Source: a virus. Taken from it: a stretch of 40,542 nt of DNA. Under the pieces are notes generated by a model. The model was not told the origin of the DNA. It did not search any database and worked only from the letters and a program-made list of their open reading frames with translations. Of this stretch, positions 1 to 40,474 are shown in pieces. The stretch lies in UHGV virus genome UHGV-0192375. One strand, 5' to 3'. The translations under genes and the position numbers were made by a program. Position 1 is the stretch's first letter, and every line of letters begins with the position of its first letter.

Positions 1-185
1 ATTTTTCGACTATGCGGCGGCAATCACTCAGATTTGGTTTGCGAGTGCCATTTTCATAGTTCGAGATGCGCGATTGGCGCCACCCAAACATCAACGCCAA
101 TTGCTCTTGTGTTAGTCCGAGAGATTGTCTCTCACTCGCTATATTGTTCATATTTGACCTCGTGCTTATCGATGGACGGAATTAA

Positions 186-246
186 AACACGCTACGTGTT
201 TGAATGTCAACACCATATGTTTTTGAGTGATAACACGCTACGTGGT
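186..246 (+). promoter_or_regulatory. Two copies of a 13-bp palindromic operator (ACACGCTACGTGT at 187-199, ACACGCTACGTGG at 233-245) bracketing a putative promoter of the repressor gene
   Basis: Exact direct repeat of AACACGCTACGTG; each copy has inverted arms ACACG/CGTGT around a CTA centre; centres are 46 bp apart and the second copy ends 12 bp before the ATG at 258. Confidence 0.55.
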
Positions 247-257
247 AAAAAGAATTT

Positions 258-638
258 ATGAATACAAATGAACGAATTGCTGCGCGGCTTAAACAAGCCA
301 GAGAACAAAAGGGACTGTCTCAGAAGGCACTCGCAGAGCTGTGTGGGTGGGCTCAATCTCGGATTGGCAATTATGAATCGGCTAGCAGAGCTATTGGTAT
401 TGATGATGCGATCGCTCTGGCAAAAGCTCTACGAATACCACCGGCAGAGCTAATATTTGGGCCCGAATCAACTCAGGAGTGGATAACTCCGCAACATAGA
501 AAATTGATTGATTTGTTTGATCAGCTGCCTGAAGCCGAGCAAGAAAGGATGATCGATTTGTTTCAGGTTCGATTGAAAGAAATTGATGACTATGTGGAAA
601 AGTATCTGCGTGGTCGTTTTAAATCTTCTGAAGACTGA
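258..638 (+). CDS. XRE-family helix-turn-helix transcriptional regulator, probably the prophage A immunity repressor (126 aa, no S24 peptidase domain)
   Basis: N-terminal HTH_XRE signature (LKQAREQKGLSQKALAELCGWAQSRIGNYE); position and strand match a cI-like gene upstream of the pL-exo-xis-int operon; operators upstream. Confidence 0.75.
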   Translation: MNTNERIAARLKQAREQKGLSQKALAELCGWAQSRIGNYESASRAIGIDDAIALAKALRIPPAELIFGPESTQEWITPQHRKLIDLFDQLPEAEQERMIDLFQVRLKEIDDYVEKYLRGRFKSSED

Positions 639-656
639 TCGCCCTTAGCATCACTG

Positions 657-688
657 CAACCAGCCTGACGGCTGGTTTTTTTTGTTTC
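657..688 (+). terminator. Rho-independent terminator after the repressor gene
   Basis: GC stem AACCAGCC-TGAC-GGCTGGTT followed by a TTTTTTTT run. Confidence 0.8.
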
Positions 689-724
689 TTAACGCCCTAC
701 CTCAAAAAAATTTACCCGCCAAAA

Positions 725-770
725 ACACATCACGTGTTGACACAATATCACGACTTGGGTTTTACTATAA
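725..770 (+). promoter_or_regulatory. pL-like early promoter (TTGACA at 737-742) overlapped by an operator-like site ACACATCACGTGT (725-737)
   Basis: Consensus -35 hexamer; the operator-like site shares the ACAC...ACGTGT arms of the two operators upstream of the repressor; the -10 element is not confidently placed. Confidence 0.4.
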
Positions 771-909
771 ACACAGCACGGTCATCAAGGCAGGACGCCC
801 ACGAAGTAGCTGCCGGCGGCATACGAAACACCGGATGAGATGACAATACAATCGCGCAGCAGGTTTACCGTTCCGCCAGCCTGGCGTTAAAGGCACACAG
901 GAGTTAACC

Positions 910-1032
910 ATGATCGATTTCGCACGCAAAAAAACTGGCTGCCAAGCCGTTCGCTTAAATCTTTTTGAAGTACTGGTTCGTAAGCTTTGCTACTTACTGG
1001 CGCAAAAAGGCAATCCAGAGCTAAAAGCATGA
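910..1032 (+). CDS. Small basic ORF (40 aa), first gene of the early-left operon
   Basis: Strong SD AGGAG 6 nt upstream of the ATG; not in the supplied ORF track because <60 aa; its TGA stop overlaps the ATG of the next ORF (ATGA). Confidence 0.35.
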   Translation: MIDFARKKTGCQAVRLNLFEVLVRKLCYLLAQKGNPELKA

Positions 1033-1211
1033 GCTCGTTCTTTGCCCTGATCGTTACCGTCTGCGCCCTCACCGGGGAATGCTCAGACATCATGCTCGGT
1101 GTATACCAGACCAAATCTGGTTGTGATGCAGCTGCTAAAGAGCAGCACGTTAAAGGAGAGTGTTACCCGTACAAATCGGCTGACGACCAGCGGCCAGCCT
1201 TTAAGTTTTAA
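1029..1211 (+). CDS. Small cysteine-rich protein with N-terminal hydrophobic signal-like segment (60 aa)
   Basis: MSSFFALIVTVCALTG... hydrophobic N-terminus, 5 Cys; translationally coupled (ATGA) to the upstream 40-aa ORF; the competing ORF on the opposite strand (887..1114) is less protein-like. Confidence 0.4.
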   Translation: MSSFFALIVTVCALTGECSDIMLGVYQTKSGCDAAAKEQHVKGECYPYKSADDQRPAFKF

Positions 1212-1228
1212 TCGAGTTTTGACCAATG
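1209..1228 (+). repeat. Copy 1 of conserved 20-bp linker TAATCGAGTTTTGACCAATG (stop codon + 14 nt + ATG)
   Basis: Identical or near-identical sequence at 1732-1750 (+), 38351-38370 (-) and 39903-39922 (-). Confidence 0.8.
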
Positions 1229-1338
1229 GCTGTTACCAGCCTTATGCCAGGTGCACATGGCATCGTGATGGTAATACTGCCATCGCAACCAGACAGGAGA
1301 CGATGACCTGTTCTGGTTAAATTGGAAAAGTTAACTTT

Positions 1339-1376: not shown

Positions 1377-1673
1377 ATGTCAGCAAACGATCTGGCACTG
1401 AAATTCAGCACTGCGCCAGCAGAACAGTTAATCGGCGTGTTGCCTGTACTTGAAGTTAAAGAGGCTCTCTACGATGAGGTTTCTGACGATGTGATGAATG
1501 AGGTTTGTACTGAGCACGGGTTTGAAATCGAATTTATCGAGCAGACCTGCAACGCCTTCGCCACAGCAATGAAACTTGCTATTAAGCAACCAGCCAAAGA
1601 AGCTCGCGCCACACTGAAAGCAGCATTAGAAGAGTACCCAGGATACGGGCGAGATCCAGACGTGTACTCTTAA
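1377..1673 (+). CDS. Hypothetical acidic phage early protein (98 aa)
   Basis: GGAGG RBS 5 nt upstream; reasonable codon usage; no recognisable domain. Confidence 0.6.
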   Translation: MSANDLALKFSTAPAEQLIGVLPVLEVKEALYDEVSDDVMNEVCTEHGFEIEFIEQTCNAFATAMKLAIKQPAKEARATLKAALEEYPGYGRDPDVYS

Positions 1674-1731
1674 AGCACAAAACCCGCGCAAGGCGGGTTA
1701 AGTACCCGGTCAGCCGACCAAAGCTTTCCGG

Positions 1732-1750
1732 AATCGAGTTTTGACCAATG
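1732..1750 (+). repeat. Copy 2 of conserved linker (G)AATCGAGTTTTGACCAATG
   Basis: 19/20 identical to copy 1; its ATG opens only a 9-codon ORF (ATGACCACT...). Confidence 0.8.
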
Positions 1751-1813
1751 ACCACTACCCAAGGCGGCAATCATTAGCTGCGGGTATCTTACAACCAAAA
1801 TTAAGGACCCGAT

Positions 1814-4378
1814 ATGGAATTTTTCTATTTTATTAAAGCAACCCAGAAATCAGGCAAAGAGGATGCCGTGATCTGGTTCACCGCTAAATCAGAAGCCCGC
1901 GCCAATTTGCAGTTGGATGTTGAGCTGGAAGATGCAGGCATTGAAACCGGCCGCGGCAAGGATTATGTCAAGCCTGTCCGCACCGATTTTCCGGTGTATA
2001 ACGACCTGCCTGAAGAAAGTGCAGTAGATTACACATGGTGCAAACGCTACGAATTGCAGGACGATGGACGCACCTGGCTGCCGAAGGCAACTGCTGAGTC
2101 TGTTGGAGCCGTGGACAATACTACCGCTCCGGAAACGACCGTTAAAGTTGAAACTATCGACGAGAGTGTGACGCTTGAAAACCGCACTCCAGCGGTACGT
2201 TTTGCCTTCCATCTGACCAGCGACAAATATCAGACGCATATCAGTAAAGAGCAGCAGCTGGCTGCCAGCGAAATATCACTGGATGAAGGCAACACCTATC
2301 TCCAGAATCTGCTACTGGCGAAGAATGACACCCCTGAAGTTGCCGAACTTAGCCTGAACGCTGAGTGGAAACTGATTCAGGCGATTAAGCAGGTATTCGC
2401 GCCAGATGAAGAGCACGAAGTAAAGCTACTTGCTACTTTCATGGCCGACTGGTTGAGAGTAGATGCCGGCGACCGCAATGAGTTAGTGAGAGAGTGGAGG
2501 AGCGGAAAGCTTACTCTGCTCAAATCAGAAAGAACCAGCGACGCCGGGGTTGAAACTGGTCATCATCTCGCAACTCATGATGGTATCCAGATCGGCGAGC
2601 ACGATGATGAAAACACCCGTTATCCAGTGTGCAGAATGCCGTTCCGTAAGCAGCTTCTTGCTCAGTTCACCACCGACGAACTGCGCCACCACGTAACCCG
2701 CGAAGAATACGAAGCTATCAGCGCGCTGGAGATGGACACTGACAACAGCTATGTTCAGAACCTGCTGCTGGCGGCAGAAAACTGCGAGGAAATTAAGGGT
2801 TACGATACCAAAGACCTCTGGCGCTACACCGACGCCATTCGCAAGGTGTTCAGCCAGGAGAAGCGTCACGAACTCGCTTTGGTTCTCCGTTTCACCAGAA
2901 TCTGGGCAGAGACAGATTACATAGATCGTGGCCTGCTGATTAAAGAATGGGGTAAGGGTAATCGGGTGAGCACGATTAATCGAACACCTTCCGGCGCGAA
3001 TGCTGGCGGCGGTAATAAAACCGACCGACTGACACCATTAACTAAAACGGGTCGAGATTACGAATTAGCAATGGGGCTACTGGCGCGTCGGTTTGAGTTT
3101 GATATTTACGCTCCATCTCTTGAAATTGACGTAAAAGCCAATGCCATCATGAACCTCAACTGGCCTGGCGAAGATGATGTTCTGGACGAGTTTCTGGCGA
3201 CATGCAAACTGTTTGACCAAATGCCAGGGGGTATGGATTATTCCCGCGCCTGTAACGTTGCAACAGTAAAAACCACCCCAGAAAATCTCTGGAAAGATCC
3301 GGTTAAACACCTCGAATATCTTAATCGTGTCATGACTGAAACCGATCATGCGCACCCTGATCAAACATTGGTTGATATCGCCTGTGGCCGCTCCTCCTTG
3401 CCTGTACCAATGGCTGATGTGGCGCAACCATCAACAGATGATGTTGATCGCCAGCTTGCTGTCGGTCGTGGGGAGTTCGTCCCAGGCATCAGTGACCGAG
3501 CAGATCCAAAATGGGACAGTGCCCACCGCCAACTGACCGCAACTCACGAAGAAAATTTACAGCGGGTTCGTGAAGAAGGCGCCCTTCAGCGGGCTAACGC
3601 TGTAACTAAAATATCAGCAGAAGAAATTCAGGAAGTGGAGACCACCAGCAATGTGCAGATGGAAGAAACTGGCAATGATGAAACCACGAACGACACTCCG
3701 TTATCAGAGGGCCAGGAAGAAGTTATCGCAGGCGAAAGCTCTACTGAAATTGATAGCAACGCAACTGCCCTAAATAATAATTCCGGTCATCATAATGATG
3801 ATGCGGCTGATATGCTCTTTACGCACCTTATGGTAGATGTTGAAAGCCTGGGCAAAAAGCCCGACGCGCCAATAGTTTCCATCGGAGCGGTATTCTTCGA
3901 CCCAGCATCGGGCCAGACGGGACCTGAGTTTTATAAGGTGATCTCTCTCGAATCGGCTATGGAATGGGGCGGCGTTCCTGATGCCTCTACGATCCTCTTC
4001 TGGTTGAAAGCAACTCCTGAAGCTCGCTCAGAGATTGTTATGGATCATGCCATCCCACTGGATGATGCCCTCCTCCAGTTCAAGGATTTTATCGCCGAGA
4101 ATGCAGCGAACGGCAAGGATTCAGTACAGGTCTGGGGAAATGGATCCAGCTTCGATAACGTCCTGCTTGAAAATTCATACGACCGAACCGGGATCCCTCG
4201 CCCCTGGAAATTCTGGAACAATCGTGACGTAAGAACCATCGTCGAACTGGGTAAAGCTGTGGGTTGTACGCCTCGCTACGAGATCCCTTTTGAAGGAGAA
4301 CCGCATAAGGCTATTTCAGACGCACTTCACCAGGTCAAATACGTGTCAGCAATCTGGCAACGTCTGATTTCAAACTGA
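1814..4378 (+). CDS. Large exonuclease (854 aa): RecE (exodeoxyribonuclease VIII) N-terminal-region homolog with an internal ~95-aa duplication, fused to a C-terminal DnaQ-like DEDDh 3'-5' exonuclease domain
   Basis: The C-terminal 200 aa carry the Exo I (MVDVESLG), Exo II (WGNGSSFDNVLLE) and Exo III (HKAISDALHQ) motifs. The N-terminal region shows RecE-like blocks (DYIDRGLLIKEWGKGNRVSTINRTPSGANAGGGN; DIACGRSS; GRGEFVPGISDRADPKW), recalled from memory and not aligned. Two internal repeats begin TYLQNLLLA and SYVQNLLLA. It occupies the exo/bet slot upstream of xis-int. Confidence 0.8.
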   Translation: MEFFYFIKATQKSGKEDAVIWFTAKSEARANLQLDVELEDAGIETGRGKDYVKPVRTDFPVYNDLPEESAVDYTWCKRYELQDDGRTWLPKATAESVGAVDNTTAPETTVKVETIDESVTLENRTPAVRFAFHLTSDKYQTHISKEQQLAASEISLDEGNTYLQNLLLAKNDTPEVAELSLNAEWKLIQAIKQVFAPDEEHEVKLLATFMADWLRVDAGDRNELVREWRSGKLTLLKSERTSDAGVETGHHLATHDGIQIGEHDDENTRYPVCRMPFRKQLLAQFTTDELRHHVTREEYEAISALEMDTDNSYVQNLLLAAENCEEIKGYDTKDLWRYTDAIRKVFSQEKRHELALVLRFTRIWAETDYIDRGLLIKEWGKGNRVSTINRTPSGANAGGGNKTDRLTPLTKTGRDYELAMGLLARRFEFDIYAPSLEIDVKANAIMNLNWPGEDDVLDEFLATCKLFDQMPGGMDYSRACNVATVKTTPENLWKDPVKHLEYLNRVMTETDHAHPDQTLVDIACGRSSLPVPMADVAQPSTDDVDRQLAVGRGEFVPGISDRADPKWDSAHRQLTATHEENLQRVREEGALQRANAVTKISAEEIQEVETTSNVQMEETGNDETTNDTPLSEGQEEVIAGESSTEIDSNATALNNNSGHHNDDAADMLFTHLMVDVESLGKKPDAPIVSIGAVFFDPASGQTGPEFYKVISLESAMEWGGVPDASTILFWLKATPEARSEIVMDHAIPLDDALLQFKDFIAENAANGKDSVQVWGNGSSFDNVLLENSYDRTGIPRPWKFWNNRDVRTIVELGKAVGCTPRYEIPFEGEPHKAISDALHQVKYVSAIWQRLISN

Positions 4379-4445: not shown

Positions 4446-4709
4446 ATGAGCGAACAATATCTGATACCCCTGGCGGAGTGGAAGTCCGGACGATTCGGAT
4501 TTGAGATCACAAATACCACGCTGGTTAAGTATGGGAAGCTTGGCTATATCAATCCCAAACCTGAAAAAGTCCGTGGGCGATGGTGTGTTGACCGCAGCGC
4601 GATCTACGTCGGGCCAAGTGCTGCCGGGGTAGCTCCCGAAATTCACGAGGACGACGATGAAGCGTTGAAGGAGATCCTAAATCATGTCACCAAGGCCACG
4701 AAAAAATAG
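4446..4709 (+). CDS. xis: Excisionase (Xis)-like DNA-binding protein
   Basis: Small basic protein immediately upstream of int and overlapping it; SD GAGAG 8 nt upstream of the ATG at 4446 (the supplied ORF track starts at a GTG at 4437). Confidence 0.65.
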   Translation: MSEQYLIPLAEWKSGRFGFEITNTTLVKYGKLGYINPKPEKVRGRWCVDRSAIYVGPSAAGVAPEIHEDDDEALKEILNHVTKATKK

Positions 4710-5802
4710 CATATCTATACCCGGGCTTTATGCCCGGTTTGACCGCCGCACGGACAAAACTTATTACCAGTACAAAAATCCTGTCACCGGCAAATTCCAC
4801 GGGCTTGGTACCGACAAAGCCAAAGCGGAGAAAATCGCTGCTACAGCCAACCAGAGAATTGCAGCTGCTGAAGCCGATTACTTCCTTAAACAGATTGATG
4901 AAAAACCGGCAGCCAATAAAACTCGGGGAATTAGCCTTAAAGGCTGGGTCGTCAGGTACGAGAAAGTCCAGCGAACCAGGGTGAGCAATGGGGAGTTATC
5001 GGAAGGACGTTTCAAAGAAAAAATGAGGATGGCAAATTTGCTGGCAGAACGGCTGGGGAATCATCCATTGCGCAGCCTGGAGGTTCGTGATTTTTCCCTT
5101 CTCCTGGAAGAGTGGCTTGATAAAGGCCAAGCGAGTACAGCGCTGAATAATCGCGTGGTGTGGATAGATCTTTACCGTGAAGCGCAACATGCCGGTGAGG
5201 TACCGCCCGGCTGGAATCCCCCTGAGGCGACGCGTAAGCCAATACCAAAGGTTTCCCGCGCACGATTGAGCATTGAGGACTGGAAAGCGATTTTCAGCGT
5301 CGCTCCGGAAGGGCATTATATCCGCAACGCCATGTTGCTCGCATTGGTAGCCGGCCAGCGAAGAGAGGACATAGTCAGGATGAAATTCTCTGATGTGTGG
5401 GATGATCACTTACACGTGATCCAGGGAAAAACAGGGATGCGGCTGGCGTTACCGCTCTCACTTTACAGCGAAGCGGTCGGGATGACTCTCAGGGAAGTAA
5501 TCGCAGGTTGCCGGGACCGAATAGTAAGCCCGTATCTGATTCATAGCCAGCTACAGAAGAAAGGCCAGCCAATGAGCAAAGATAACCTGAGTGATTATTT
5601 TGCTGAAGCCAGGGATAAGGCGGGCATTAAACCACCGGAGGGAAAAACCCCAACAACATTTCACGAACAGCGCTCCCTGTCTGAACGTCTATATCGTGCT
5701 CAGGGGATCGACACGAAAACTCTGCTGGGTCATAAAGTACAGGCAACCACCGATAAATATAATGACACACGCGGGCAGGAATGGATCAAACTGGTCATTT
5801 GA
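4684..5802 (+). CDS. int: Tyrosine recombinase, lambda-family phage integrase
   Basis: C-terminal catalytic region (R...HEQRSLSERLY...LLGH...Y..D.RGQEW) closely resembles lambda Int; N-terminal arm-binding domain present; overlaps xis. Confidence 0.95.
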   Translation: MSPRPRKNSISIPGLYARFDRRTDKTYYQYKNPVTGKFHGLGTDKAKAEKIAATANQRIAAAEADYFLKQIDEKPAANKTRGISLKGWVVRYEKVQRTRVSNGELSEGRFKEKMRMANLLAERLGNHPLRSLEVRDFSLLLEEWLDKGQASTALNNRVVWIDLYREAQHAGEVPPGWNPPEATRKPIPKVSRARLSIEDWKAIFSVAPEGHYIRNAMLLALVAGQRREDIVRMKFSDVWDDHLHVIQGKTGMRLALPLSLYSEAVGMTLREVIAGCRDRIVSPYLIHSQLQKKGQPMSKDNLSDYFAEARDKAGIKPPEGKTPTTFHEQRSLSERLYRAQGIDTKTLLGHKVQATTDKYNDTRGQEWIKLVI

Positions 5803-8331: not shown

Positions 8332-10449
8332 TTAATCTCCAACATTGACCCAGGCATTTGTTTGTTTATTTAAATACTGTAATTGACGATAGTAGACACC
8401 TAGCTTTCGGCCATCACTTCTGTTTTCCATATTCACCCCTGTGAGAACGCATCCAGCAGGTGATTCCCAGTTTCCAAACCAGGCATCTGTCGGATTTCGA
8501 ACCTGTTGACCGCCTCGGCGTAGGCCATTTACCACACCATAACGCGCATCACTCTGTGCTTTGGTATAAGCTTCACCCGCAGGGGTGTAACTCCCTTTCG
8601 GCTGAAAACGCCCGTCACTTTCCGACTTCGTGTATGCCTGACCAGCAGGGGTGTAACTCCCCTTAGGCTGAAAACGTCCGTCACTTTCAGCTTTGGTGTA
8701 TGCGCCTGTTTTTGGCATATATCCCGCATCTGATTGTGCTTTGGTGTAATAACGGTTATCAAAATTGGCATAGCTGCCCGGATTAACCTGACCCGGCGCG
8801 TTAAAGTTGCCATTAGTGTCCCATTTAAAATTAACCTCTGATCCGCCACTGCCTTTCATGTGCAGATGCCATGAAAGTTCGGTTCCCGCGACCAGAGACC
8901 CAAACGAAAAAGCCCAGGAGTTTTTACTCGCGATTGTCGCCTGTTGCTTGATAACCGGGTGGTATTCGCTCTCGCCGGTTGTTGAATATGAATTAAAAAA
9001 TGGTGCTTTCGTTTTATACTGTTCTACCCACGCAAACGCCCCGCTATAACCTGCTGTAATTTCTTTAGAGGCATAGACCGTATTACCGACGGTAAGTGGC
9101 GTTTCAGATTGAAGTGCTCCTGTTTCAAGGCTTACACGCAATGGTCGAAGCGCGTTGTAGGCTCCGTAAGAGTCTCCCTTATTGGTCAGCATGAGATACA
9201 GGTTGCTGCCGTCATTTCGCCAGAATGAGCCGTAGTCACCATAGGCAATGCGGAAATTGTTTGCGATGGTACTCTGAATTTCTGCATCAGCCTTGAGTAC
9301 GCCACTCATGGTGTCGCCGCTTTTATTCACGGCACCAATATCAGCCGGGGACGGTTTATTGACGGAATCATATCGTTTGGCCCAGGCAGTCCATGCGCCC
9401 GTTGAATACTGGCTGCGAGTGTAGGCACGAGAACTGTTATAAACCAGATAAACTTGTGTCACGCCCGCATTTTTGTAAACCAGCAGCGTTCCGGCGTTAT
9501 TTTCTGGATAGTGCCTCGCGGCTGAAGTATTGGCATTTATTGGCTGAAAATAAATACCCGGCGTTTTTAACGTATCCAGATCCTCGGTCGAAAGCCCGAT
9601 AGCCTGGTCGTTGAAGATATCCTGAGACGTTACGCTGGTATCGTCTGTCAGTGCGTGACCATTTATCTTACGCCCAGACGGTACACGCCCATTAGCATTA
9701 TCATTAGCTGCTTTGACAGCTTTCGGCGTAGCCGCCAGCGATTCACTGTCACTGTCAGTTGCGCTACTGAGCTGGACAATCCCCTTTTGTGCTGTGGTGG
9801 CGTTCTGAGCAGTATATTTCCCTTTTGCAAGATCATATGCATCTTTAACTGCCTTTGGTGTGGCCGCCAGCCCCTCCGACTTACTGTCGGTCGCATTACT
9901 GAGCTGCACCAGCCCCTTACGTAATGTAGTCGCATCGACGACGTCTATCGCTTCCCGCGCGCTTTTTTGTGCACTTGGGCCATTCTCAGCGATCTCCCCG
10001 AGATTTCGGTCGAGCCGCAGAAAAAGACCATCGCCCGTAGCCACTTTTAATTCAACTGCCGCCGTCTCTGATACCGCAAGTCGGTATTGTAGATTTACAC
10101 TGACACCGTTTTCAGGCTTTTCAATGGCGGCACAATTCGCAACAGAATACAGTTCGCCAGCATCTGTCAGCAGGCCAACTTCCCTGACTACGAATCCACC
10201 AACGTTAACCGGAAGGACCAGCTGAGCAATAAACTGGTTCGCCTGATCCGGAGAAATCTGTAGTGCAGAAATTGCGCTGCGATAGACCTCACGCACCAGC
10301 TTCGTCTGCGCAGGAGCCGGTTTAACGGACTGCCCGTTCCCGTCCCCCACAACAAAATCTTTGATGATGACGGGCTTCCCGGTTGCAGAGGATTGCGTCT
10401 CCAGCTCCTTGCCCCGGTTTGTCAGAATGCTGTAATACTTCTCAGCCAT
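8332..10449 (-). CDS. Tail fibre protein (P2 gpH-like) with tandem C-terminal repeats
   Basis: N-terminal gpH-like attachment region, repeated ...KGIVQLSSATDS...ATPKAVK collar motifs, and repeated SDGRFQPKGSYTPAG units. Confidence 0.85.
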   Translation of the reverse strand: MAEKYYSILTNRGKELETQSSATGKPVIIKDFVVGDGNGQSVKPAPAQTKLVREVYRSAISALQISPDQANQFIAQLVLPVNVGGFVVREVGLLTDAGELYSVANCAAIEKPENGVSVNLQYRLAVSETAAVELKVATGDGLFLRLDRNLGEIAENGPSAQKSAREAIDVVDATTLRKGLVQLSNATDSKSEGLAATPKAVKDAYDLAKGKYTAQNATTAQKGIVQLSSATDSDSESLAATPKAVKAANDNANGRVPSGRKINGHALTDDTSVTSQDIFNDQAIGLSTEDLDTLKTPGIYFQPINANTSAARHYPENNAGTLLVYKNAGVTQVYLVYNSSRAYTRSQYSTGAWTAWAKRYDSVNKPSPADIGAVNKSGDTMSGVLKADAEIQSTIANNFRIAYGDYGSFWRNDGSNLYLMLTNKGDSYGAYNALRPLRVSLETGALQSETPLTVGNTVYASKEITAGYSGAFAWVEQYKTKAPFFNSYSTTGESEYHPVIKQQATIASKNSWAFSFGSLVAGTELSWHLHMKGSGGSEVNFKWDTNGNFNAPGQVNPGSYANFDNRYYTKAQSDAGYMPKTGAYTKAESDGRFQPKGSYTPAGQAYTKSESDGRFQPKGSYTPAGEAYTKAQSDARYGVVNGLRRGGQQVRNPTDAWFGNWESPAGCVLTGVNMENRSDGRKLGVYYRQLQYLNKQTNAWVNVGD
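8555..8760 (-). repeat. About 2.5 tandem copies of a 66-bp repeat inside the tail fibre gene (22-aa units YTKAESDGRFQPKGSYTPAGxA)
   Basis: AGGGGTGTAACTCC recurs at 8581 and 8647 with flanks conserved. Confidence 0.8.
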
Positions 10450-16605: not shown

Positions 16606-17112
16606 TTAAAGCCGTACTTTTGCCGCCAGACCGGAAAGAACATCCACGCCATTCACCCGGCGCGAGAAGCGCTCAGTATCAATCTCAAAGAGCTCGCGAC
16701 CGTCCTTGGTCTGACGGTAATAGCTCACGGCAATTTCGACCGTGACGGCATTTTCGGACAGGCTGTCCTTGCCACGCGCGTCGGGAGTGACGGTCTGCAC
16801 AAAGCCTTCGATCTCCTCGATAGTACCCAGCGCGGTACCGTTAGCCAGATAGCCCTGATAGGCCGTAAAGCGCGGACGGCTGCCGCTGACAAAACCGAAG
16901 GCGGTCAGCATATCCACGTCCACACCGTAAAACTTCAGCTGACAGGTGAGTGCTTCCATGCCGTCATCAACGGGGGACGGCGCATCCTGTGCGCCGGTAC
17001 GCAAATCCGTTTTGACAATGGACAATGCCGGCGGAGTAAATTCATGCGCCCCCTGTATGCGGATCCCCTGCCGGAAGAAGGTCCAGACGCGTAATGTGTT
17101 TTTTTCGCTCAT
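16606..17112 (-). CDS. Tail tube protein (P2 FII-like)
   Basis: Size and position directly after the sheath gene. Confidence 0.8.
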   Translation of the reverse strand: MSEKNTLRVWTFFRQGIRIQGAHEFTPPALSIVKTDLRTGAQDAPSPVDDGMEALTCQLKFYGVDVDMLTAFGFVSGSRPRFTAYQGYLANGTALGTIEEIEGFVQTVTPDARGKDSLSENAVTVEIAVSYYRQTKDGRELFEIDTERFSRRVNGVDVLSGLAAKVRL

Positions 17113-37933: not shown

Positions 37934-38353
37934 TTACGCCCTCCCTGCCATGCGAAGACAAACTTTCCGGCGCTTCGCTATTCGAGCTACCTCTACAGCG
38001 CTGCCGGCGATCCCAAACATGTCGGTGTACACAGCTGCTGCTCGCCGCCATAACCCCTTTTCCTCAAGTGCTTTCGCTTTCTGCTCTGCGGATTGCATCC
38101 TGACCGGATCGCTTTTTTCCACCATGCAGGGAAGGATCACATCCGGAATAACGGCATCTGGTGCCGCGGTGTACATAAACTGGCCCCCGCTACGCGCACG
38201 AACTAACACGCCTTCATTACTTAACTCACGCAGTAACTTCCCTGATGCAGCGCTGGACATATCCAGTGCTTCGCAAATGTCGCCAACTGCGCAGTTCGGT
38301 TGGTAGCGCACGAAAATCGCCACCTGCTCTTTCTGGGTTAATGGTTTGGTCAT
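37934..38353 (-). CDS. Winged-HTH + PerC/Pch-like transcriptional activator fusion (139 aa)
   Basis: C-terminal ALEEKGLWRRAAAVY...CLRMA resembles the PerC/Pch core (EAAGLWRRAA); N-terminal wHTH; its start codon is part of linker copy 4. Confidence 0.55.
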   Translation of the reverse strand: MTKPLTQKEQVAIFVRYQPNCAVGDICEALDMSSAASGKLLRELSNEGVLVRARSGGQFMYTAAPDAVIPDVILPCMVEKSDPVRMQSAEQKAKALEEKGLWRRAAAVYTDMFGIAGSAVEVARIAKRRKVCLRMAGRA

Positions 38354-38370
38354 TGGTCAAATCTCGATTA
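38351..38370 (-). repeat. Copy 4 of conserved linker TAATCGAGATTTGACCAATG (stop of P-like gene + 14 nt + start of PerC-like gene)
   Basis: 19/20 identical to copies 1 and 3. Confidence 0.8.
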
Positions 38371-39039
38371 GTTGGTTAAACCTGCCGCTTTGCGGCGCTT
38401 GTACTCTTCCATCAGCAGCTGTGCCGGAGTTGGCCCTGCCGGATGCTGCGGTGCAGCAAGCTGGCGACGGATTGGTGGAACCGACAACCCGTTGCTCACG
38501 TGCTTCGTCCATTTGGTCAATAACTTCTCAGCGAGTTTCTTCAGTTCCCCCTCAGTCATCTGGCGCTCTACGCCAGTCCTGCGCATTTCGATGCAGATGT
38601 GGTACAAAACCGGCTGCGGCCACGGGTATTTATCACTTCCCGAAAAACGATATGACTCGCTACGCCAACGGCGGTATTCAGTCATCACCCGATCCGATGT
38701 AAGCCCGAACGGGTTAGCCCCACTCTCAGAAACCAGCGATACGAACTCAGCCAGATCAGGAGGCCATGTGTTACCTACCGCGCAGCGCTCCATGCACTGC
38801 TGGCAAACCAGTTTAATCTGGGCCTCAGTCATCGAACCTATCTGAGCTATCCAGAGGGCCGTAGGCTCTGCCCCATTCTTCTGTGTCCATCGGTTCGAGA
38901 AGATTTCCCCCATCACCTGCCATAGCCGCCATGCCGTTTCCGTCGCCATCAAGTCCGTTCCGGCGTCGCCACTCTGCGTGTGCTGATTGAATTTGCTGAA
39001 CAGCTCGGGATGCTGTTGGTTCTGATCGAACTGCTGCAT
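38368..39039 (-). CDS. Replication-module protein in the P position (putative helicase-loader/replication protein P-like; function unverified)
   Basis: Strong GGAGG RBS; directly follows, and overlaps by about 215 nt out of frame, the O-like initiator gene. Confidence 0.5.
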
Positions 39040-39883
39040 TGTCGGTACCTCCGGATTGTGGTTTTGTCTGGACCTTTGCGCGATCCAGATGGCGGGCCAA
39101 TTTTTGCTCCCACTGGATTTGATGAAAAACTTTCCCTTCGGCTTGCCAGTAAGCGATGAAACTACTCAGTTCCGCTTCAAAATTTATTCCCGCCTTCAAC
39201 GGCATCCCCCACAAAACCGCCTGACGTTCAAAATCGACTGATGGTTTCCAGGCCTGATGCATCTGGAATTTCCCGAATGATTGCTGTGGTCCAAATCCGA
39301 TACCGGGTTGGTTCGGATAATCTGGAATAGCAGGTTCGACCAGTTCGCTATGTGTGGGGTTTAGATCTTTATGGTTCCTTGGTAGATTCCGTGTCCCGTT
39401 TTTGGGACTGTTTAAAGGGAAAAACGGTACTCTTTGGTTAAAATTCGAACTATTAACAATCCCGATTTTGGTATTGTTATCCTCGTTAACAGTCCCGTTA
39501 ATGGTACTGTTCGCATTAACAGTTCCGTTATCGGGATCATTTCGTTGAACAGTCCCCTTTTTGGTACCGTTTAAACGGTACCGATTTCGGGCTTGTTCTG
39601 CATCGGGGATGCTTTCTTCAACGCCCACCAGCCTGTAAACAGGTATTTGTTTAGTCCTGCCACGCCGTTCCCCGGTGTCCACAACAAGGCCGATTTCCTG
39701 TAGATGCTGCAATCCTGCAAGCACAGTCTTTCTGTCCATCTCAGTAGCCTCTGCAAGCGCAGCGACAGATGGATAAGCGCATAAGTCAGCACCGCACATA
39801 TCAGCCAGCCAGGTTAATATCGCCTTGCTGGAAGATTTTCCGGTTTTAACTTTTTTGGCCCACCGCATTGCATCAATGCTCAT
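38825..39883 (-). CDS. Replication initiator (lambda O-like N-terminal HTH + DnaT-like C-terminal domain) containing the origin iterons
   Basis: [12 protein letters not shown]...[11 protein letters not shown]-terminus typical of phage replication initiators; C-terminal DnaT-like segment; iterons within the coding sequence; GGAGG RBS. Confidence 0.8.
39391..39570. repeat. Origin-like iterons: four direct repeats of TTAACAGTCCCGTT with 29-33 bp spacing, an inverted copy (GGGACTGTT) and a flanking AT-rich stretch inside the O-like gene
   Basis: Copies at about 39453, 39486, 39517 and 39546; they encode the N-rich NGTVN repeats of the initiator; analogous to lambda ori within O. Confidence 0.7.
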
Positions 39884-39902: not shown

Positions 39903-39922
39903 CATTGGTCAAAACTCGATTA
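39903..39922 (-). repeat. Copy 3 of conserved linker TAATCGAGTTTTGACCAATG (stop of CII-like gene + 14 nt + ATG of a 10-codon uORF preceding O)
   Basis: Identical to copy 1. Confidence 0.8.
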
Positions 39923-40474
39923 AAAAAATTGCGGCGCTACGGCGCTAATACTCGCCAGTAGTGGTCCCGCCGTCTCAGCTGGTAGCATGTTGAATAAGGC
40001 GATTGCCGCTTCACGTATTTCTTTCTCAAGCTTCTGTAACGGAGCACCGAGAAGTTTCGCCTGGTGTGCCTCGCTGCATTCTTTGATTGCGCTCGCCACC
40101 AATTCGGTTTCTGTCTTTGCCTTACTGAGACCGTGCTTTCGGGCGATCTGAATAGGCATGGCAGCAATGATTGCGCCAGAAAGTTGCATGACGTAAGCGG
40201 TGTATTTATCAGACCCACTTTCGTTTTTCAGGTACCGGAAAAGATTCTGCTTATTAACCGCGATGCCGCGCCCACCACGCTTCGACCACTGCTCAGCCAC
40301 CAGTTGCGCGATCTTTTCCTGAGCCTGTCCTGGTAACGTTGACTCCCACTCCCGAACAGCCTCAAAGATGGTGCGACTGCGTATCGAGTCTCTTCGAGTA
40401 GGAGCAAACTGATTATTTGTTTTCAAAGAAATAAAAGTCTGGGGAATAGAATGTTCATAAGGGATCTGTTGCAT
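39920..40474 (-). CDS. CII-like regulatory protein (position-based; possibly Phage_CP76 family)
   Basis: 184 aa; AAGGAG RBS; located immediately upstream of the O-P replication genes as cII is in lambda. Confidence 0.45.
   Translation of the reverse strand: MQQIPYEHSIPQTFISLKTNNQFAPTRRDSIRSRTIFEAVREWESTLPGQAQEKIAQLVAEQWSKRGGRGIAVNKQNLFRYLKNESGSDKYTAYVMQLSGAIIAAMPIQIARKHGLSKAKTETELVASAIKECSEAHQAKLLGAPLQKLEKEIREAAIALFNMLPAETAGPLLASISAVAPQFF

Follow-up and report, generated by a model that had tools for sequence, protein, structure and literature searches.

The window analysed here, the DNA of UHGV virus genome UHGV-0192375 at its full length of 40,542 nt, is a temperate phage genome in which a motif of about 20 nt recurs four times, three times at gene junctions of the two divergent early operons and once within a unit just ahead of a recE-like gene. 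Judging from its features, this unit is most likely the gene for an IsrB-like small RNA (sRNA) antisense to the pL operon, and its predicted transcript is complementary to the three junction copies. The reading that we favour, with a probability of roughly 0.45, is that the IsrB-like sRNA targets these conserved junction sites, which would double as recombination linkers. IsrB, boundary sequences and phage antisense RNAs are each already known; the novelty lies in their combination, an IsrB-type unit with an exposed 5′ half to which a single, identical junction element corresponds at module borders in both early operons.

Searching the window with the pattern TAATCGAGWTTTGACCAATG, allowing up to three mismatches, gave the four copies at the places and on the strands listed in a first-pass annotation of this DNA, except that the second, present on the plus strand as stated there, begins at 1731 rather than 1732 and has G instead of T as its first base. 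No copy occurred in 100 dinucleotide-preserving shuffles of the window. The copies are the following:

1209–1228, plus strand: junction copy, pL-like operon; it starts with the TAA that terminates the DUF1482 gene, and a 26-codon open reading frame (ORF; 1226–1306) begins at its ATG.
39903–39922, minus strand: junction copy, pR-like operon; it is headed by the TAA stop codon of the YdaT-family gene, and a 10-codon ORF (39905–39873) begins at its ATG.
38351–38370, minus strand: junction copy, pR-like operon; the P-like gene stops at its TAA, and the PerC/MarR-like gene starts at its ATG.
1731–1750, plus strand: recE-proximal motif copy inside the conserved class-B unit, whose minus strand is the 5′ half of the predicted sRNA.

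As the first-pass annotation had observed, all four copies are co-oriented with local transcription, in both divergent early operons, and the TAA that heads three of them is the stop codon of the upstream gene. Its overlap of the 10-codon ORF from copy 39922–39903 with the O-like start at 39883 is confirmed, and the ATG of copy 38370–38351, which it took for a real gene start, is the sole possible start of the PerC/MarR-like gene. The four copies are not equivalent, as had been implied, since copy 1731–1750 differs in kind; some 60 nt separate it from the end of the upstream gene, and it is therefore no stop-to-start linker. Nor is the spacer wholly without a Shine-Dalgarno-like element, as GAG stands 9 nt before the ATG. 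The four copies all lie in the early operons, and relatives of this phage carry 3–6. A weak fifth match, AATCCGTTTTGACAATG, found far from the early operons at 17004–17020 (plus strand) with one substitution and two deletions, is probably due to chance.

The same annotation had placed the copies in two different prophages, which is wrong. All 21 of the 30-mers that bridge the window end and the window start are present in the prophage of Escherichia coli NZ_CP129240, the 300 nt before the join show 98.3% identity to it, and this prophage matches window positions 1–1241 at 95%; left of that match it carries a cro-like helix-turn-helix (HTH) gene, YdaT, a DnaT-domain O, P and PerC, which are the genes of the window's far end. 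One gene spans the join of the window ends:

151–1 plus 40542–40478, minus strand: cro-like HTH gene, 216 bp.

Since the window ends join, two tandem prophages are ruled out, and the window is one complete, circularly permuted lambdoid (Rac/Gifsy-like) temperate phage genome of 40.5 kb with a lambda-like layout. It is one genome with divergent early operons, and the four copies therefore occupy both early operons of one phage, each on the sense strand.

No ORF ends at copy 1731–1750, and the mini-ORF there lacks conservation. In all relatives about 130 nt of its flanking sequence are conserved, regardless of the upstream gene and of which of two RecE N-termini lies downstream. The resulting class-B unit of about 110 nt, which is both conserved and structured, occurs once per locus in 101 of 122 loci and twice in none; in the other 21 loci, most of the motif copies listed lie near an end of the fetched DNA. 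Conservation of the unit is bounded by a minus-strand terminator with a T-run at one end and a −10 hexamer at the other:

1672–1779, minus strand: predicted IsrB-like antisense sRNA, about 108 nt, with ends inferred from the sequence (the 5′ end 7 nt after the −10 box, the 3′ end in the T-run after the terminator).
1786–1791, minus strand: −10-like hexamer TAAGAT, with T1, A2 and T6 kept in 31 of 31 distinct units.
1681–1699, minus strand: intrinsic terminator stem-loop AACCCGCcttgcGCGGGTT followed by TTGTGCTTT, found on the minus strand only, with compensatory changes in relatives.

Among the 31 distinct units the hexamer is TAAGAT in 25, TAAAAT in two, and TACAAT, TAGGAT, TAGAAT and TAGACT in one each. 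The predicted sRNA consists of a 5′ helix, a single-stranded seed, a hairpin presenting CUUUGGUCGG and the terminator. When the proposed structure (5′ helix, middle hairpin and terminator) was laid over the alignment, 94.6% of cells could pair, compared with 28–46% in slid controls, and six pairs change on both sides. The RNAalifold energies of the two strands, −18.95 and −16.59, do not discriminate between them, and the strand signal comes from the 12-bp 5′ helix, which is canonical in 92.6% on the minus strand versus 55.8% on the plus strand, with changes such as A-U to G.U and U.G to C-G. In Pectobacterium and in one viral contig, the CCGG/CCGG stem of the middle hairpin is replaced by CCAACGCU/AGCGUUGG with the loop CUUUGGUCGG and the motif unchanged; across 21 distinct variants of that stretch, the loop is invariant and the stem compensatory. 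Folding of 29 predicted RNAs leaves AAAACUCGAUUC unpaired with a probability of 0.84–1.0. This accessible 12-nt segment (1742–1731) is the complement of GAATCGAGTTTT (window 1731–1742), and together with the adjoining 3′ arm of the 5′ helix it makes up the motif complement in the sRNA. Any 5′ end between 1779 and 1756 leaves the full 20-mer complement in the transcript. We infer that the sRNA is transcribed. On the opposite strand, a hairpin just after the recE-proximal copy (1751–1785 and relatives, alignment A2) is kept by G.U-compatible changes, and the recE leader may itself be structured, apart from the antisense RNA.

It has been reported that Salmonella IsrB-1/-2 appears on northern blots as an 88/94-nt RNA located between sbcA (recE) and STM1010 and antisense to both (PMC2330248), that IsrB is expressed from the prophage (PMC7067206), and that it is ProQ-associated with a probable part in maintaining lysogeny (PMC5391140). 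The class-B unit is syntenic with this Gifsy sRNA and weakly homologous to it. Its place between recE/sbcA and the small pL gene ahead of it, antisense to the two, matches the Gifsy-2 layout; the −10 position is common to both, with TAGAAT in Gifsy-2, 6–7 nt before the longer mapped 5′ end, and TAAGAT here; and the hairpin with CUUUGGUCGG, the intrinsic terminator and the size of about 90–110 nt recur, here as sequence-based predictions. The best permissive Rfam match is isrB (RF01386; minus strand, 1756–1677, 19.2 bits, full model length, E = 0.16 for 191 nt), which shares the hairpin CCGG..GCUUUGGUCGG..CCGG and the Rho-independent terminator. Similarly, a profile of the unit alignment (nhmmer) has as its top matches the Gifsy-2 IsrB locus and the syntenic HK225 site, with E = 0.03–0.04. 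The difference lies in the 5′ half, which is here unrelated in sequence and matches the three junction sites, whereas the 5′ halves in Gifsy-2 and HK225 have no dispersed copies.

The HK225 site (NC_019717, 29259–29380; 5260–5381 of locus L123) is an unannotated IsrB-like element upstream of recE; its −10 box is TAGAAT, and it has a terminator and the same hairpin loop, differing in its 5′ half. In Gifsy-2, the replication genes are followed by STM1016, whose first codons (9804–9835 of locus L122) contain CCGACC...CAAAGCGAAC, complementary to the conserved IsrB hairpin region; this 10-mer match is within chance, and its position is suggestive.

The complementarity between the predicted sRNA and the junction copies is perfect over 19 nt at 1210–1228 and over 20 nt at 39921–39902, and extends over 23 nt at 38369–38347 with one mismatch in the T-run. 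When the 40.5 kb of the genome were scanned, the three junction copies were the only sites with at least 14 nt of complementarity, one mismatch being allowed; a duplex-energy scan of the genome with the whole sRNA was swamped by GC-rich spurious duplexes and uninformative. Each complementary site spans the stop codon, the weak GAG and the restart ATG, and one of them covers the end of the CII analogue and its junction to the O-like gene, the YdaT family being a functional analogue of CII (PMC9986795). The copy in the sRNA is the least variable, being the exact consensus in 66 of 76 distinct sets of sRNA and junction copies, and the junction copies deviate singly. A site for a shared regulator was among the roles listed in the first-pass annotation; for that regulator the best candidate is the antisense sRNA over copy 1731–1750, and not a protein.

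Several observations weigh against an sRNA that targets the junctions. For the predicted sRNA, no −35 box is recognisable and a simple promoter scan was negative, and expression in this phage group is predicted only. Within genomes, no covariation is seen between the sRNA copy and the junction copies: the junction sites remain at consensus where the unit has GAACAAT, TTTCGAG or AATA, and the junction substitutions have no wobble-compatible bias, most of them being T-to-A in the T-run. Two invariant boxes with a variable 4-nt centre would equally suit a protein or the ribosome, although weak A-U pairs in the middle of a duplex may matter least and so account for the variable centre. A ribosome terminating at the TAA would unwind the duplex there. 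The kinship with IsrB is also distant: at the curated (gathering) thresholds of Rfam no known RNA family was found in the whole window, the isrB match of 19.2 bits falling short of the 35 required, and the nhmmer E-values are only those given above. In addition, for the 5′ halves of their own IsrB-type RNAs, Gifsy-2 and HK225 contain no trans sites of 14 nt or more when one mismatch is allowed, and dispersed targets are therefore not general to the IsrB-type family; this phage group has invented the dispersed sites. Finally, the unit may be a leader element of recE, in addition or instead.

If the IsrB-like RNA does target the junctions, the motif would exist in two forms, namely one sRNA gene per phage before recE and junction sites in the sense strand of both early operons, the latter laid out as an upstream stop codon, 14 nt and an ATG that would be either the next gene's start or that of a mini-ORF ending at the next start. 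The sRNA would pair with the junctions over 19–23 nt, masking the stop codon, the GAG and the restart ATG, and pairing would lower translation restart, or trigger cleavage of the early mRNA, ahead of the replication genes, of the PerC-like regulator and of the genes that follow DUF1482. In cis, the sRNA would act on the recE leader, its antisense partner. Such action would be like that of lambda OOP, P1 c4 or P4 CI RNA, most likely silencing early functions in the lysogen. Identical sites at module borders could double as short homologies for module exchange between related phages, an exchange whose pattern is observed and whose mechanism is proposed from that pattern. A wider proposal, in which the IsrB-type RNA is a master gate acting in trans on both early operons through the identical linker at every module border (ahead of the replication genes and of the PerC/nin-type genes, behind DUF1482, and in cis ahead of recE), the same sites being the crossover points, is rather doubtful. 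The sRNA-target, linker, restart and protein-site readings are compatible with each other.

Early or immunity operons of phages are known to be controlled by antisense RNAs. In P4, seqB of CI RNA pairs with seqA and seqC; in P1 and P7, the c4 RNA targets a2/b2; and lambda OOP covers the CII-O region. The likeness is that one small phage RNA is complementary to sites in early transcripts, here in silico; that one site takes in the CII analogue's 3′ end together with the CII-O junction, as with OOP; and that the sites cover translation starts, as with c4. Unlike the P4 and P1 RNAs, which are processed from the target transcript, the RNA here would come from its own predicted antisense promoter in the other early operon; unlike OOP, it would not be cis-encoded at its target; and the targets here are in both divergent operons, in which all three systems differ from the present one. 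Should the pairing prove true, lysogeny control in Rac/Gifsy-like phages would gain an RNA layer reaching both early operons, and the conservation of the linker would be explained.

The core of the motif, AATCGAGTTTTGACCAATG(A/G)CC, is 19–24 nt long and is carried by one group of Enterobacterales temperate phages of the Rac/Gifsy-like kind. A scan of IMG/VR with AATCGAGNTTTGACCAATG gave at least 118 loci, many with 2–4 copies on both strands. In 1.06 Mb fetched from IMG/VR loci among the matches listed, there were 190, 73, 31, 14 and 49 matches at 0, 1, 2, 3 and 4 mismatches (357 in total), compared with 0–2 for reversed or shuffled motifs at up to four mismatches. The motif is not a host-chromosome repeat, and a random scatter over host chromosomes, raised in the first-pass annotation, was not seen: with one genome per species (185,579 species) there were 33 loci, about 28 of them in Enterobacterales prophages. 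The prophage hosts are Kluyvera, Enterobacter, Klebsiella, Citrobacter, Leclercia, Pectobacterium, Dryocola, Buttiauxella, Pluralibacter, Scandinavium and Sodalis, and four lone matches in unrelated phyla fit chance, for which our own estimate is about 17 for 18 fixed bases in 1.2e12 positions. The only cultured phages with the motif are Citrobacter phage Chris1 and Klebsiella phage Kp4865-4. The recE-proximal unit is almost absent from E. coli (2 of 5,426 genomes), and the host belongs to an enterobacterial genus other than that of E. coli. A sequence-based literature search for the 20-mer returned unrelated primers only.

In an alignment of 207 non-redundant copies, the conserved block is AATCGAG-TTTT-GACCAATG, followed by R-C-Y after the ATG (positions +4 to +6; 1.0–1.3 bits). 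Both edges of the block are sharp, CGAG and GACCAAT are almost invariant, and the T-run is variable, mostly from T to A. The leading T of the TAA stop lies outside the core; it is G in one class, and the stop codon may sit 1–6 nt farther upstream. Of 250 non-redundant copies, 207 stand behind an ORF of 50 codons or more whose end falls within −40 to +8. A promoter within the motif, with TTGACC as the −35 box, was rejected: no conserved −10 box lies downstream, the ATG is inside the motif, and the promoter scan was negative. GAGUUUUGACC resembles the complement of 16S rRNA near position 910, a likeness that we take to be near chance and structurally implausible.

The copies are confined to a few fixed slots, namely behind the first small pL gene or DUF1482, some 65 nt ahead of recE, behind YdaT, and behind P or a DnaC-like gene, and each marks the head of a functional module (the genes after DUF1482, recE, the replication genes, and the PerC/nin-like genes). 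The genes on either side reassort. There are 13 upstream and 22 downstream families of flanking genes; YdaT is joined through the motif to at least nine different downstream families, the PerC-like gene follows P or DnaC-like genes, and recE follows several different upstream genes. All non-redundant copies were compared pairwise over the 60 nt that adjoin the 24-nt block to its left and to its right. Defining a mosaic break as at least 80% identity on one side with less than 45% on the other, a break at the motif was found in 65% of informative pairs, which are not independent of each other, compared with 0.2–23% when the anchors were displaced by 150–900 nt. The motif is a true mosaic boundary, and the module-boundary role suggested in the first-pass annotation is supported as a pattern; recombination probably takes place within the 20-mer itself.

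One account of this pattern would be a pure recombination linker, kept uniform by homologous exchange, whether of the phage RecE type or of the host, with no regulatory role; the recE copy would then be one more border and its overlap with the antisense RNA incidental. Besides the sharp break, the independent reassortment of flanks and the position of every copy at the head of a module, the RecE-like exonuclease encoded by the phage and the lambdoid-phage precedent (PMC3029335) speak for it. However, selection for evolvability is weak for holding 19–24 nt near-invariant in more than 250 distinct contexts, and the sharp edges, invariant boxes and variable centre resemble a recognition site. Ectopic exchange predicts that modules move between slots or arms, and no such moves are seen; moreover, the single-copy structured unit and the lowest variability of the recE copy are left unexplained. 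We regard a linker and nothing more as unlikely.

Boundary or linker sequences of lambdoid phages were reportedly described by Susskind and Botstein in 1978 and, for HK620, by Clark et al. in 2001. To our knowledge, such conserved sequences were proposed decades ago for module exchange and have rarely been found, with no function attached. The likeness to them is a short conserved border sequence between interchangeable modules whose flanks reassort. The differences are that one defined 19–24-mer is here present at all borders of both early operons, that it includes stop and start codons, and that it is complementary to a probable regulatory RNA, which would give a reason for conservation other than recombination. 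The boundary sequence is here clear and widespread, with at least 118 viral loci and about ten enterobacterial genera, and if the pairing is not real the element would still be among the best-documented mosaic junction sequences. If the master-gate proposal were true, modules arriving at the linker would fall under resident RNA control at once, which would supply a selective reason for Susskind-Botstein linkers and a function for IsrB-type RNAs.

The stop and start codons in the element lead to another reading, in which the motif is a translational restart cassette made up of the stop, the weak GAG, an A/U-rich spacer, the AUG and a favourable second codon ACC/GCC, with the sRNA complementarity being secondary. 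Such a cassette would be selected chiefly as a compact start region for coupled translation and would hand ribosomes on between modules with no need of a strong Shine-Dalgarno sequence. Restart or coupling, also among the roles listed in the first-pass annotation, is plausible as an activity of the motif. TAA stands directly before the core, its two As being core positions 1–2, in 150 of 250 copies, and the motif ends with ATG in 232 of 250. In 260 non-redundant contexts, the motif ATG starts a long ORF in 104, among them the PerC-like gene, a family that always starts at this ATG and has no other Shine-Dalgarno sequence; in 138 it starts a mini-ORF. Ahead of replication genes the mini-ORF often stops at the next gene's start or just within it, the stop falling within −3 to +12 of the true start in 16 of 43 spacer types, and unrelated spacers that precede a given gene keep the mini-ORF frame. 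These statistics are soft and point to real translation from the motif ATG, and the conserved RCY after it and the A/T-rich variable part of the motif also suit a restart. On the other hand, a restart could do without a fixed 14-nt sequence, but the GACCA that precedes the AUG is invariant, as is the AATC that precedes the GAG, and 18 of the 260 contexts have ATA, ATT or similar (AAA) in place of ATG with the rest of the motif kept. No ORF ends at the recE copy, whose mini-ORF is not conserved, and other junctions of both operons use ordinary Shine-Dalgarno sequences or overlapping stop-start codons. A cassette for restart as the primary role is, in our judgement, quite unlikely.

Conserved motifs just before start codons are known elsewhere. 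The start-associated sequences (SAS) of cluster K mycobacteriophages reportedly include the ribosome-binding region, number 10–19 per genome and have no known complementary RNA. They share with the present motif their place just before the start codons of a subset of genes, and differ in sequence and host phylum.

A further possibility is a protein site on DNA or nascent RNA, which might be a roadblock of the stoperator type, a loading site akin to nut or ops, or a YdaT site of an unusual form. Stoperators often overlap stop and start codons, lambda nut sites are also co-oriented with transcription, and L5 stoperators were reportedly found by Brown et al. in 1997 to be co-oriented with it. The boxA consensus is CGCTCTTA or TGCTCTTTAACA; compared by eye, CGAGTTTTGACC in the motif shares only about 7 of 12–13 positions with it, and the motif has no boxA consensus. 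L5-type stoperators are asymmetric and sit in short intergenic gaps, in one orientation and in more than one operon (PMC9283540, PMC3029335). The motif is likewise asymmetric, intergenic and in a single orientation, co-oriented with transcription in both operons, and its bipartite conservation around a variable 4-nt centre would suit a protein. The stoperators of L5 gp71 and Bxb1 gp69 are DNA sites of the immunity repressor that share the operator sequence and number 20–30 across early and late operons, whereas the motif has 3–6 sites, all in early operons, the operators here are different palindromes, and the candidate ligand is an RNA. A site of the immunity repressor was rejected on account of these palindromes. 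Small GC hairpins follow many copies after DUF1482 and YdaT, as boxB follows boxA, and an intrinsic terminator lies 110 nt after copy 1; however, no hairpin follows the window copies at 39903 and at 38351, the hairpins differ in stem and loop, and an arginine-rich protein of the N type is not evident, the 40-amino-acid product of the first pL gene having no Pfam match. AATCGA and TTGACC are similar to the two YdaT-box half-sites (TTGATT-N6-AATCAA; PMC9986795, PMC11879457), but they are wrongly ordered and spaced, being everted with a 3-nt spacer (AATCGA, then TTGACC) where the YdaT box is an inverted repeat with a 6-nt spacer. In addition, no protein family was found special to motif-bearing phages, and HK225, which has an annotated CII-like gene of similar size, and Gifsy-2, with its small pL genes, lack the motif. 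We therefore judge a protein site to be very improbable as the main role of the motif.

The genes around the copies are arranged in a lambda-like manner:

258–638: CI-like gene with its own terminator.
pL-like operon, plus strand: 40-amino-acid gene, DUF1482, 98-amino-acid gene, recE-like, xis and int (4684–5802).
1029–1211, plus strand: DUF1482 gene, ending in the first junction copy.
1377–1673, plus strand: 98-amino-acid ORF, upstream neighbour of the recE-proximal unit.
1814–4378, plus strand: RecE-like gene, 854 amino acids, with an Exonuc_VIII N-terminus and a C-terminal Rv2179c-like 3′-5′ exonuclease (exoribonuclease) domain.
pR-like operon, minus strand: cro-like, YdaT, O, P, PerC-like and further genes.
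39920–40474, minus strand: YdaT-family ("CII-like") gene, ending in a junction copy.
Start at 39883, minus strand: O-like gene.
38368–39039, minus strand: replication protein P-like gene, ending in a junction copy.
37934–38353, minus strand: PerC/MarR-like regulator gene, starting at the ATG of a junction copy.

The RecE-like gene is not followed by a RecT gene here, unlike in Gifsy-2 and HK225. At least four copies of an iteron-like repeat, GGRACTGTTMA, lie inside the O-like gene at about 39430–39560 (minus strand), a stretch that is probably the replication origin; the motif was rejected as a replication iteron, because the iterons sit inside the O-like gene and differ in sequence. Operator-like palindromes of the form AACAC-N5-GTGTT occur at 185–201, 231–247 and 724–738, beside the divergent early promoters, and the third overlaps a TTGACA −35 box at 737–742; they are unrelated to the 20-mer, which has no match at them.

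Two further stretches of the pL-like operon may be structured as RNA. A long GC-rich leader (782–909) lies ahead of the first small gene, with visible self-complementarity (GTCATC...GATGAC). Meanwhile, the intergenic stretch 1229–1376, directly after junction copy 1, has a very strong predicted fold of four hairpins (−64.9 kcal/mol, z = −4.7) and ends in a plus-strand intrinsic terminator at 1339–1358; the stretch may be a terminator region of the tL1 kind or some other RNA element.

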